Source: an uncultured Candidatus Saccharibacteria bacterium (lineage in GTDB: Bacteria; Patescibacteriota; Minisyncoccia; Phycocordibacterales; Phycocordibacteraceae). Taken from it: 61,893 nucleotides of DNA. A program made the position numbers and the translations under genes. This document shows, piece after piece, positions 54,481 through 57,297 of this stretch. Numbering within the stretch: position 1 is the stretch's first letter; every line of letters begins with the position of its first letter. Location of the stretch: NCBI GenBank assembly GCA_964349555.1, contig CAYGGK010000003.1, positions 1 through 61,893 of the forward strand. The letters run 5' to 3'. Under the pieces are notes generated by a model that was given only the letters and a program-made list of their open reading frames with translations, was not told the DNA's origin and did no database searches.

Positions 54481-57297
54481 ATGGCGTACGACCATTCATC
54501 CATTGAGAAGAAATGGCAGGACCGTTGGGAGCGGGACGGGCTCTATCGCGCCAGCGAAGAGGAGGGGAAGGAGAAAATATACGTACTTGACATGTTCCCG
54601 TACCCTTCAGGCGAGGGGCTTCATGTCGGCCATCCGAGAGGGTACATCGCTACCGACATTTATTCCCGCAAGAAGCGCATGCAAGGGTTCTCGGTACTCC
54701 ATCCGATGGGATGGGACGCCTTCGGCCTGCCTGCGGAGAACTACGCGCTCAAAAACAAGACGCATCCGCGCAAGGCGGTAGAGCAGAATATCGCCACCTT
54801 CAAGAGTCAGCTCGCGCACATCGGCTTCGACTACGACTGGACGCGAGAGATAAACACCACCGACCCCGCGTATTACAAGTGGACACAATGGATATTCCTA
54901 AAGCTCTTTGAGCAGGGGCTCGCGTACCAATCAAATGAGCCCATTAATTGGTGCCCGTCTTGCATGACGGGGCTCGCGAACGAAGACCTTGACGGGAACG
55001 TCTGTGAACGATGCGGCACAGTCGTCGAGAAGAAGCGCCTGCCGCAGTGGGTGCTGAAAATTACCGAGTACGCCGACCGAATGCTCGAAGACCTTGTCGG
55101 GCTCCAGTGGCCCGAGCACGTCAAGGAGGCACAGAGAAATTGGATCGGTCGTTCCGAGGGTGCGGAAATATCCTTTGAAGTTAGGACATCAGATGTCCAC
55201 AAGATTAACGTTTTCACCACGCGCCCGGACACTATATATGGCGCAACGTACCTCGTCCTCGCTCCCGAACACTCCCTGTTTTCTAATTATGGATTTACGA
55301 AGTCCATAAGTAATTACCGCGAGGTGGAAGCGTACATCAAAGCGGCAGAGACGAAAACGGAAATAGAACGCGGCGCAGAAGGGAAGGAGAAGACTGGAGT
55401 GCGGCTCGAAGGAATAACGGCAGTGAATCCGGCGACCAAAGAAGAAATCCCCATTTTTGTCGCCGACTATGTGCTCGGTTCCTACGGCACAGGCGCCATC
55501 ATGGCCGTCCCTGCCCACGACGACCGGGATTTCGTATTCGCAAAGAAATATGGCTTGCCAGTCCGGCGTGTCATCGAGCCAATAACCGGTTCGCCGCAAG
55601 AGAAAGCGGAACCAAAAGAGAAGATAATCGCCATTGTGGAAGATGATGGGAAGGTGCTCACTATTAACTGGAAGCCCGAGCTCGGAGGGCGGCTCACTGT
55701 AGGCGGTACGGGGGAAACGGGAGAAGACCCGGCCGCTACAGCTCGGCGTGAAATAGCAGAAGAAACCGGATATACGGATCTAGAGCTCGTCGAGCGGGCC
55801 GAAGAAAGGGTGCATCACGAGTATTTCGCGCACTCAAAGAACAAGGCATTCATTGCCCACACAACTCTTTTTCATTTTCGTCTCAAATCCGACGCTCAGA
55901 ATAAGGTACAGCTTGAAGATAACGAGAAGGGCAAGTTCATAGTCGAGTGGGTGCCGATAGCCCAAGCTCTCAGTGAGATCACCGACCCTCTCCATCACTA
56001 TGCGCTTGAACGGTTCCTTGTCGGGAAGGCGTATAATGGTTCTGGTTTTCTTACCAACTCAGGAGGATTTACGGGGAGAGGAAGTGAGGAGGCGATGGCG
56101 GACATTGTTGTCGCTGTGGATGGCAAGAAAGTAGTGCGGTATAAGTTACGCGATTGGGTCTTCTCGCGACAGCGCTACTGGGGCGAGCCCATTCCTATCA
56201 TCCACTGTGAGAGAGACGGCGCGGTCGCGGTGCCCTACGAGGACCTGCCGGTAGTGCTCCCCGAGGTGGAGCACTACGAGCCGACCGGCACCGGCGAGTC
56301 ACCGCTTGCGGCGATTGACGATTGGGTCAATACGACCTGTCCCAAGTGTGGTGGAGAAGCGAAGCGAGAGACGAACACGATGCCGCAATGGGCGGGCTCT
56401 TCTTGGTACTACCTGCGCTTTATGGACCCGCACAACGACCACGAGCTTGTTTCGAGCAAAAATGAGAAGCGCTTCGCGCCGGTTGACGTCTATGTCGGTG
56501 GCGACCACGCCGTGCGCCACCTTATCTACGCGCGTTTCTGGCACAAGTTCCTCTACGACACTGCGGTGGTGAGCACCAAGGAGCCCTTCGCCCGTCTCGA
56601 GTTCCTCGGCTTCATCCTTGCCGAGGACGGCAGGAAGATGAGCAAGCGATTCGGGAATGCTATCAACCCCGACGAGGTCGTCGCCAAGTACGGCGCTGAC
56701 GCATTTCGCGCCTACGAGATGTTTATGGGTCCCTTTGAGAACACTACCGCGTGGAGCACGACCGCTATCGCGGGGACGAGACGCTTCTTCGAGCGGCTAT
56801 GGAGCGCACAAGAACTTGTTACCAAGGAGCCGGCTAGAGCGCTCGACCAGCCGCTTCACCAAACCATCAAGAAAATCGGCGATGACATTGAAGCGTTTAA
56901 ATTTAATACCGCAGTGAGCCAGGCGATGATATTCCTGAACGCTCTTGAGAGGGAAGGGAAGATTGGTCGCGAGCAGTGGAGTGCGTTCTTGCGACTGCTC
57001 GCGCCCGTTGCTCCGCACATTACCGAGGAGCTCTGGGAGAGACTTGGCGAGCAGTATTCTATCCATCTTGCTCCCTGGCCCGCCTACGACAGCGCATGCC
57101 TCGTCTCGAGCGCCGTAGAAGTCGTGGTACAGGTGAACGGCAAACGCCGCGGCTCGGTTACACTTGCCACAGCCGCCTCCGAGGACGTCGCAGTTACCGA
57201 AGCTCGCAAACTTCCTGCCGTCGCCGCCTCCCTCGCCGGGGGAGAGCCAAAACGCGTTGTGTATGTGCCAAATAAAATAATTAATCTGGTGATATAG
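54481..57297 (+). CDS. leuS: leucine--tRNA ligase with an inserted NUDIX domain
   Basis: Has the HIGH-type motif [16 protein letters not shown], the TTRPDT editing domain, the [12 protein letters not shown] motif and KMSKR. Residues ~369-518 carry the Nudix box [23 protein letters not shown]. Confidence 0.95.
   Translation: [938 protein letters not shown]

Follow-up and report, generated by a model that had tools for sequence, protein, structure and literature searches.

A Nudix domain nested in the editing domain of leucyl-tRNA synthetase in Patescibacteria and a gut Bacilli lineage

What is a Nudix domain doing inside a leucyl-tRNA synthetase (LeuRS)? The question is raised by a stretch of DNA of 61,893 nucleotides (nt) from an uncultured Candidatus Saccharibacteria bacterium (assembly GCA_964349555.1, contig CAYGGK010000003.1, positions 1 to 61,893), referred to here as the window, and specifically by its leuS gene at 54478..57297 on the forward strand. 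A preliminary description, made from the sequence, had reported a complete Nudix hydrolase domain with an intact Nudix box at 55582-56031, between two conserved LeuRS blocks. Profile searches, structure alignment, and the translation bear this out, and the reported coordinates lie within five codons of the insert as we map it (55597-56025). Based on sequence comparison and structural modeling, we consider it probable that the product of 54478-57297 is a working bacterial LeuRS and that the Nudix pyrophosphohydrolase domain nested inside it is competent for catalysis.

Architecture of the window LeuRS and its insert

The leuS gene consists of a single unbroken frame encoding a 939-residue bacterial LeuRS. 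The whole protein scores 986 bits against the NCBIfam model TIGR00396 (leuS_bact, cutoff 548.4), and the match falls into two stretches, the first of which covers residues 4-380 (model positions 1-371). Pfam profiles identify the class I catalytic core, the PF13603 editing domain, and the anticodon-binding domain, with the Nudix profile PF00293 between them. The signature motifs for catalysis and editing are intact. These include the HIGH signature of the class I catalytic core (HVGH, aa 49-52; 54622..54633, +), the threonine-rich editing motif TTRPDT (aa 247-252; 55216-55233, +), a 15-residue editing motif containing GTG and AHDxRD (aa 337-351; 55486-55530, +), and the KMSKS-loop signature (KMSK, aa 720-723; 56635..56646, +). 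Across an alignment of 90 Nudix-bearing LeuRS, no variation is seen in HVGH, KMSK, GTG (aa 337-339), or AHDxRD (aa 346-351), and conservation of TTRPDT is 90% or higher. The full-length AlphaFold model, from which confidence values and secondary structure were used, has a predicted local distance difference test score (pLDDT) of 90.4 and a predicted template modeling score (pTM) of 0.82, and Foldseek aligns it to the Escherichia coli LeuRS-tRNA complex 4aq7 with a template modeling (TM) score of 0.84. The window protein is like the LeuRS structures of Thermus thermophilus (2BYT/1H3N) and E. coli (4AQ7) in its HIGH and KMSKS signatures, zinc-binding cysteines, CP1 motifs, and anticodon-binding and C-terminal domains. 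The listed start of leuS is the TTG at 54478; the adjacent codon, ATG 54481, gives the N-terminus MAYDH, as in homologues, which begin M-x-x-x-YDH, and is probably the actual translation start.

The insert comprises residues 374-516 (55597..56025, +), with boundaries taken from the alignment to Protein Data Bank (PDB) structures and from insert-less relatives. PF00293 matches residues 385-504 of the full protein with E=4e-13 and a 150-residue segment on its own with E=1.2e-14 (54.9 bits, gathering cutoff 21.1). The 23-residue Nudix box, G-x5-E-x7-REIAEETGY, is exactly the translation of 55705-55773 (+), as originally described, and reads G410, TGETG, E416, DPAATAR, R424, E425, Ile, Ala, E428, E429, Thr, G431, and Y432. 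An AlphaFold model of the insert alone, built with 40 homologues, has a pLDDT of 93.8 and a pTM of 0.87. It shows the α/β/α architecture of Nudix proteins with the box on a loop-helix-loop, in which helix 418-430 bears the REx2EE signature. A Foldseek search with the insert returned many Nudix structures at a probability of 1.00 and TM scores of up to 0.80. These include 2AZW, an unassigned MutT/Nudix protein from Enterococcus faecalis (TM 0.74-0.76), the Aquifex diadenosine tetraphosphate (Ap4A) hydrolase 3I7U (TM 0.71-0.80), RppH (TM 0.73), and MutT1 (TM 0.68), while the lowest E-value belongs to the T. thermophilus ADP-ribose pyrophosphatase. Taken together, the profile matches and the models show that the insert is a Nudix domain with the full metal-binding and catalytic box, rather than an ordinary LeuRS insertion, and on the strength of its sequence it is very probably active as an enzyme. 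With small Nudix hydrolases such as 3I7U, 2AZW, the T. thermophilus ADP-ribose pyrophosphatase 1V8I, E. coli NudB (2O1C), RppH, and the flax-rust effector AvrM14, it shares the fold (TM 0.6-0.8), the box, and a length of ∼140 residues. The insert family differs from them in that the sequence identity is only 15-26%, in having a signature of its own (W398, an aromatic pair at 449-450, an invariant K454, E483, and W491), and in being mostly nested in LeuRS. An intein or other self-splicing element was considered and rejected, because NUDIX is the sole Pfam match in the insert, with no Hint or endonuclease domain, and because the insert has a plain Nudix fold with ordered junctions.

The exact insertion site could be placed by reference to the solved LeuRS structures. 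Window residues 215-373 align to T. thermophilus LeuRS 216-368 and residues from 517 onward align to 375 onward, and the insertion falls between residues 388 and 393 of E. coli LeuRS (tagged numbering). The net insertion is thus ∼143 residues in place of a 4-6-residue loop (T. thermophilus 369-374), and no matched solved chain aligns across it. The N-terminal part of the CP1 editing domain (aa 220-373; 55135..55596, +) matches PF13603 at aa 220-376 with E=1.2e-59, where the profile is broken at position 150 of 185. The C-terminal remainder (aa 517-556; 56026..56145, +), identified from the model and the alignment to T. thermophilus 375-463, resumes at a 15-residue block. The preliminary description had put the insert at the exit of CP1; in the full-length model it is instead nested inside the editing domain, between helices α3 (aa 349-357) and α4 (aa 536-546). 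Both junctions are ordered in this model, with strand 366-371 leading into the Nudix strand 378-389 and helix 504-515 leading into strand 523-525, no disordered linker in between, and a pLDDT of 86-97 across the whole insert. Insert-less close relatives mostly read "VIE" at this site, followed by 0-12 residues and "(P)YTGxGxLxNSG", with up to 34 residues in a few. The sequence alignments and the model make a solid case that the Nudix domain is nested in a permissive CP1 surface loop, to which it is joined by short, ordered linkers.

A precedent for an insertion at this position comes from Wolbachia, in which the LeuRS editing domain has a lineage-specific insertion, i1, in the same α3-α4 region (PMC11235159; PDB 8POQ). 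Part of i1 can be deleted from the isolated domain with folding and ligand binding unharmed (PMC11235159), which indicates that the α3-α4 loop tolerates insertions. The two insertions are nonetheless different in kind, i1 being ∼20 residues long and predicted to be disordered (PMC11235159), whereas the window insert is a folded domain of 143 residues with conserved catalytic residues.

Distribution, conservation, and exchange of the insert

This architecture is far from being confined to one genome. A word-indexed search with the insert alone returned three fragments; the full-length, GTDB, and profile searches exposed a large family. When the window LeuRS was aligned with its 120 closest homologues, which come from metagenome-assembled genomes (MAGs) named Paceibacterota, Minisyncoccota, or Parcubacteria, 151-170 residues were found at the insertion site in 90 of the 121 proteins and 1-47 residues in the other 31. 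A scan of GTDB, with one genome per species, found relatives of the insert in at least 205 species. Among the best 80 of these loci, 78 lie within a LeuRS open reading frame (ORF), ∼370-400 residues from the N-terminus, and they include Saccharibacteria (the complete genome CP025011.1 among them), Doudnabacteria, and Giovannonibacteria, as well as gut MAGs labeled Bacilli, Tenericutes, Firmicutes, or Clostridia. A profile search of 1.84 billion cluster representatives gave 175 matches at E<=1e-30, and of the 150 top-scoring representatives, ∼110 proved to be LeuRS or fragments of it. Landmark mapping placed a single Nudix copy at the same site, hereafter site B, in 183 LeuRS, and in the gut lineage the domain is present in all 120 top homologues. 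The LeuRS::Nudix architecture is therefore widespread in the Paceibacteria, Saccharibacteria, and other Patescibacteria and in a gut Bacilli/Tenericutes lineage. Public databases list these proteins under the names "class I tRNA ligase family protein" or "leucyl-tRNA synthetase". In agreement with the preliminary description, we found no published account of the architecture in targeted literature searches, and tRNA synthetases go unmentioned in a survey of the Nudix clan from 2017 (PMC5389931). Both components belong to textbook families. What is new is the nested architecture, its breadth, its cassette-like evolution, its split-operon counterparts, and a wider pattern of hydrolases in CP1.

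This breadth also settles the question of whether an assembly chimera or a mis-called frame joined a Nudix gene to leuS. We give this explanation next to no weight, as the gene is one uninterrupted frame and confidence in the full-length model stays high where the insert joins LeuRS on either side. Moreover, more than 180 independent assemblies, produced in many studies and including the complete genome CP025011.1, have this architecture with the insert at the same residue position, and on the basis of this recurrence an artefact was rejected. Two individual loci deserve separate mention. At L001:5531-7248 (ENA ERZ1761047, contig_9948), a LeuRS::Nudix gene is divided among several short called genes, probably through assembly frameshift errors. 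At L032:3607-4549 (CP066684.1, labeled Aenigmatarchaeota), a 314-residue ORF consists of only the C-terminal part of CP1 and the Nudix domain; it has the appearance of a LeuRS that was truncated or became a pseudogene, and the archaeal label of CP066684.1 is possibly mistaken.

Conservation was evaluated over 90 inserts that are 22-58% identical to the window insert. G410, E425, E429, and K454 are present in 100% of them, W491 in 99%, and E428 in 98%, and position 483 is Glu or Asp in all. Aromatic residues occupy position 449 in 93% and position 450 in 90%. Among 55 sequences of the gut Bacilli lineage, the complete box does not vary at any position, and in this lineage the insert has a mean identity of 69%, compared with 72% for the LeuRS body. 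These alignments show that the catalytic core has been conserved over hundreds of lineages.

The history of the insert is decoupled from that of the LeuRS body. The closest LeuRS bodies, P0015 and P0016, are 82% identical to the window body and have no insert, P0016 having an 8-residue loop in its place, and in a neighbor-joining tree of the LeuRS body the insert-less sequences are scattered singly among the insert-bearing ones. The sister proteins P0070 and P0096 have a second inserted domain in common, and only one of them has the Nudix domain. For 132 full-length LeuRS with the insert at site B, the correlation between pairwise body identity and pairwise insert identity is 0.03. Within the LeuRS clade of the window (n=86, identity of at least 62%), 11 insert types can be distinguished, with pairwise identities below 38%, and the window's own type is present in 17 body clades, a count that partly reflects the choice of GTDB loci by their similarity to the window insert. 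The within-clade diversity and the mosaic profiles are free of this selection effect. For example, the window protein and P0013 are 81% identical in the body and 26% identical in the insert, while the window protein and L003, L004, and L010 are ∼45% identical in the body and 72-74% identical in the insert. In a sliding-window comparison with these three loci, identity is 0.70-0.93 at aa 381-460 and 0.25-0.60 in the flanks. At the DNA level, the sole substantial common block runs from ∼aa 303 to aa 493-515 at ∼68-72% nucleotide identity. These comparisons show that the insert is optional and dispensable. We interpret this pattern as the outcome of recombination between the LeuRS flanks, which are highly conserved, whereby cassettes were replaced and lost time and again.

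The Nudix family outside site B and other hydrolases in the same scaffold

The family also uses a second site in CP1, site A, which immediately precedes the TTRPDT strand and corresponds to window aa ∼235-245 (nt ∼55180-55210). LeuRS with two or three Nudix copies occur in the arrangements A+B, AAB, AA, and BB. Multi-copy examples are P0124, P0125, P0126, P0132, and P0130, with AAB, AA, and BB where the sites could be mapped, and this group also contains a 379-residue protein made up of tandem Nudix repeats only. The domain also occurs once in a related synthetase. In a Candidatus Nomurabacteria MAG (JAISOF010000008.1; L066:3248-7681), a 1478-residue isoleucyl-tRNA synthetase (IleRS) has a Nudix domain of this family at aa 253-384, before the WTTTPWTLP editing motif, which is the equivalent of site A. 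The same IleRS bears a histidine phosphatase domain (His_Phos_1, E=6e-35, aa 845-1004) and another unassigned insert. Three shorter proteins, P0248, P0260, and P0271 (279-388 residues), consist of a degenerate C-terminal CP1 fragment, the Nudix domain, and a "GEGxxINS" LeuRS segment without a synthetase core. In their CP1 fragment AHD is replaced (e.g., by AHIEED) and the GTG motif is lost. These proteins may be paralogues in which CP1 and Nudix stand on their own, or else remnants of genes.

True standalone members of the family are 154-190 residues long and have their own start codon, and the neighborhoods of eight were examined. P0146, on a JGI contig (3300071358), is directly upstream of a LeuRS::Nudix gene, in a DUF5671 - Nudix - leuS - sigma70_r4/HARE-HTH order that is syntenic with the window. 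P0177 is 2 nt upstream of an insert-less leuS. P0151 belongs to a cluster of genes on one strand, 2.4 kb upstream of a leuS that lacks the insert, and the cluster also encodes MetRS, TatD, a YfbR-like HD nucleotidase, and another Nudix protein. The loci of these leuS-adjacent or clustered genes are L086:3451-3936 (with leuS from 3939), L087, and L082:5001-5549. P0184 is 4 nt downstream of Fpg/MutM, the 8-oxoguanine glycosylase (L089:5001-5513 and L090:1095-1607), which hints at a MutT-like sanitizing role for at least some members. The neighbors of P0162, P0209, P0215, and P0229 are uninformative. Two proteins that are fused in some genomes and encoded side by side in an operon in others are classically taken to be functionally associated, or at least to have been selected for co-expression. 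The sequence evidence thus shows that this Nudix family is specifically associated with leuS.

In the window itself, leuS is preceded by a DUF5671 membrane protein gene (53463-54458) and followed by a sigma-70 region 4/HARE-HTH gene (57355-58434) and an uncharacterized protein gene (58498-59862). The synteny around leuS is conserved, and in the JGI contig the gene after the sigma-like protein encodes DUF8128. The DUF5671-leuS spacer is 19 nt, and no second family copy or remnant standalone gene was found upstream of leuS in the window. No functional link between the genes flanking leuS and the Nudix insert is evident. Farther away, a large serine recombinase gene with Resolvase, Recombinase, and zinc-ribbon domains (46330-48129, −) adjoins a cluster of five tRNA genes (44864-46638; Ala-TGC, Val-CAC, Pro-CGG, Ala-CGC, and Ala-GGC), and together they may mark the edge of an integrated element. 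There is no tRNA-Leu gene among the tRNA genes found in the window.

Nudix is not the only enzyme found in this scaffold. An alpha/beta (serine) hydrolase is present at site A in four LeuRS relatives (P0050, P0070, P0096, and P0114). A Ham1/ITPase domain is present at site A in P0103 and between the catalytic and anticodon-binding domains in P0163 (E=3e-58), and a HAD phosphatase directly follows the Nudix domain in P0107. P0119 has an unassigned 143-residue insert just before the TTRPDT strand. Most of the domains inserted in LeuRS relatives are nucleotide or phosphoester hydrolases, and in the window's lineage CP1 appears to be a hot spot for hydrolase insertions in general.

One rival explanation is that the Nudix domain is a pure hitch-hiker, in other words a generic house-cleaning enzyme that settled in a permissive loop of an essential, highly expressed protein and is functionally unconnected to LeuRS. 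In a streamlined genome, the fusion would merely save a promoter and guarantee expression. We regard this as a possible, if doubtful, explanation. It would account for the mixture of Ham1/ITPase, HAD, histidine phosphatase, and alpha/beta hydrolase domains in the LeuRS or IleRS of relatives, for the frequent lack of the insert in close relatives, and for the standalone member next to Fpg/MutM. The Wolbachia i1 insertion, in the same α3-α4 region and partly deletable without harm, fits it as well (PMC11235159). So does a second fusion in the same genome, which the preliminary description had correctly noted, in which nusB (7338-8276, +) encodes a NusB domain (PF01029, aa 7-136, E=3.4e-34) followed by a C-terminal Nudix domain (PF00293, aa 176-279, E=6.5e-14) with a full Nudix box. 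The two Nudix domains were considered as duplicates and this was rejected, as their similarity is at the level of the box only (37% over 60 residues) and the nusB domain scores 26 bits, versus 159 bits, on the hidden Markov model of the insert family. By sequence, nusB is a second case, independent of leuS, in which a housekeeping protein with an RNA-related role is fused to a Nudix domain. However, a pure hitch-hiker would not be expected to prefer one scaffold, and the LeuRS insert family does. About 110 of its best 150 representatives are with LeuRS, its standalone genes are directly upstream of leuS in two of eight loci and in a leuS cluster in a third, and it recurs in the homologous CP1 of IleRS and in CP1-fragment proteins. 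This specificity is above what a random choice of scaffold would give.

A different explanation for the exchange of cassettes is conflict. The inserted hydrolases could shield the synthetase or its tRNA by destroying nucleotide toxins or antibiotics at their target, with aminoacyl-adenylate mimics and toxins that modify the tRNA 3'-CCA end as candidates. Patchiness, divergent types within one clade, exchange, variation from one to three copies, and alternative hydrolases are typical signatures of an arms race, and the nucleotide antibiotic TM84, derived from agrocin 84, is known to target LeuRS (PDB 3zgz, which is among the structure matches). Accessory enzymes on class Ia synthetases also have a precedent in the NCBIfam exception model NF040702, which describes IleRS with an N-acetyltransferase domain. 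The added domain there is a GNAT domain rather than a Nudix domain, and at 81 bits against a cutoff of 1999 the window protein is not a member. Despite these parallels, we think conflict an unlikely origin. No toxin or antibiotic partner was identified, no defense genes are located beside leuS in the window, and pyrophosphate cleavage is not obviously active on phosphoramidate or sulfamoyl adenylate mimics. In the gut Bacilli, furthermore, every LeuRS has kept the insert and its rate of evolution is as low as that of the body, which resembles housekeeping rather than conflict. A broader proposal, which we hold to be somewhat less improbable but still speculative, is that CP1 of class Ia synthetases (LeuRS and occasionally IleRS) is a hot spot for enzyme cassettes that are exchanged horizontally across the Patescibacteria and some reduced-genome gut Bacilli, with Nudix as a protective activity tethered to its target instead of a mere passenger. 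At a vulnerable point of translation, the cassette would then destroy a nucleotide-derived inhibitor, an alarmone, a modification of the tRNA 3' end, or the synthetase's own by-products, i.e., dinucleoside polyphosphates of the ApnA type.

Candidate roles of the nested domain and their significance

What, then, might the Nudix module do in LeuRS? Since nothing is missing from the canonical editing site, and since close relatives do without the insert, the module would take no part in aminoacylation or in amino acid proofreading. The preliminary description had suggested that it could clear mis-activated aminoacyl-AMP, an idea that is unsupported, given the 82%-identical relatives without insert and the intact canonical editing residues. 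An acyl-phosphate is, moreover, not a classic NDP-X substrate of Nudix enzymes. We favor a small-molecule nucleotide pyrophosphatase that would be tethered, or co-expressed where the genes are split, beside an ATP-consuming, adenylate-forming enzyme.

Two substrate classes are favored about equally, each as a tentative guess. The first is adenine dinucleoside polyphosphates, the Ap3A/Ap4A-type by-products of synthetases, which make ApnA from the aminoacyl-adenylate. Its support comes from the Ap4A hydrolases among the structural neighbors and from the aromatic residue Y449, which is located at position +17 after the box. The lupin Ap4A hydrolase is matched with E=2e-8, although other Nudix subfamilies score equally well. 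In 1999, Dunn and colleagues reportedly observed that an aromatic residue ∼16-18 positions after the box marks hydrolases of Ap4A and other dinucleoside polyphosphates. Y449 belongs to the segment YFAHSK (aa 449-454; 55822..55839, +), whose residues are candidate substrate determinants by virtue of their conservation in the 90 inserts and of their place in the X-loop. According to a clan-wide study, the X-loop ∼17 residues after the Nudix box determines specificity (PMC5389931). The second class, also a guess that we would not put at better than possible, is damaged or non-canonical nucleoside triphosphates, in keeping with a house-cleaning role. Here the support comes from the Ham1 and HAD domains in the same scaffold and from the MutM neighbor.

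An RNA-directed activity has also been considered, in which an RppH/Dcp2-like enzyme would act on a 5'-pyrophosphate, an NAD or Np4A cap, or a modified tRNA end while tRNA(Leu) is on CP1. A profile search of the PDB gives its best sequence match to the decapping effector AvrM14 (E=1e-9), and ADP-ribose pyrophosphatase and Ap4A hydrolases are also among the top matches, at E-values of ∼1e-9 to 1e-8; Dcp2 and RppH are also listed, and CP1 is established as the LeuRS domain that binds the tRNA acceptor end. The inserts are strongly acidic, with a net charge of −8 in the window and a median of −9 over 132 inserts, 98% of which are net negative, which disfavors an RNA substrate and with it the capped-RNA role that had been put forward. 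A mature tRNA has a 5'-monophosphate and hence offers no obvious substrate, and the RppH models NF001938/NF001936 score only 16-20 bits against cutoffs of 116-118. We therefore think an RNA-directed role improbable.

Several observations weigh against an active Nudix enzyme with a defined role in LeuRS. E416 and R424 are each kept in only 60% of the 90 inserts, and with each replaced in 40%, some lineages may have altered or lost activity. No NCBIfam Nudix subfamily model reaches its cutoff with the window protein. The best match, the dihydroneopterin triphosphate diphosphatase model NudB NF006961, scores 40 bits against a cutoff of 103, and the MutT 8-oxo-dGTP diphosphatase model TIGR00586 scores 13.1 bits against 97.9, such that a Nudix substrate class is not assignable from the sequence. 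To our knowledge, LeuRS is not among the strongest Ap4A producers. Frequent loss of the module implies that its role is not essential, and the distinction between loss and gain itself rests on a neighbor-joining tree of an evidently recombining gene.

The substitutions of E416 and R424 could be taken further, to a domain that does not catalyze at all and is instead a structural, ligand-sensing, or protein-interaction module that modulates LeuRS or recruits a partner. CFIm25 and some transcription regulators are Nudix folds that do not hydrolyze substrates. Non-enzymatic Nudix domains have also been described in the clan survey (PMC5389931). Nevertheless, G410 and the glutamates E425, E428, and E429 are 98-100% conserved across ∼90 highly divergent inserts, and the full box is invariant in the gut lineage and complete in the window. 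Such conservation is a hallmark of active Nudix hydrolases and makes a non-catalytic module very unlikely.

The favored reading of a nucleotide pyrophosphatase has a parallel in a known relationship. LysRS makes Ap4A, and Nudix enzymes such as NUDT2 or the bacterial Ap4A hydrolases degrade it. This axis likewise pairs a synthetase with a Nudix enzyme and would rationalize both the fusion and the operon linkage. It differs in that its members are separate, unlinked proteins and the synthetase is LysRS, whereas in the window both domains belong to a single LeuRS polypeptide.

The finding has several practical consequences. Annotation is one, as many of these LeuRS are named only "class I tRNA ligase family protein" at NCBI. 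The use of LeuRS as a phylogenetic marker is affected because the gene is mosaic, and the nested domain bears on LeuRS inhibitors directed at the editing site in the lineages that carry it. Among these carriers are Saccharibacteria and Bacilli-type gut lineages that were recovered from metagenomes of the human and animal gut. Added or inserted domains are a classic route by which aminoacyl-tRNA synthetases gain new functions, documented mostly in eukaryotes. Here, sequence comparison points to a bacterial synthetase in hundreds of species with a second, apparently active catalytic center in its proofreading domain. With its cassette exchange, repeated loss, split-gene versions, and co-occurring hydrolase insertions, the family is a natural experiment on enzyme nesting in essential proteins, and it bears on why nucleotide pyrophosphatases are drawn to synthetases. 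Should the more speculative view of CP1 as a site for target-tethered protective cassettes be true, these proteins would represent a new class of synthetase-embedded nucleotide surveillance. If the substrate is a by-product such as Ap4A, the nested domain would be the first covalent coupling of its producer and its degrader.

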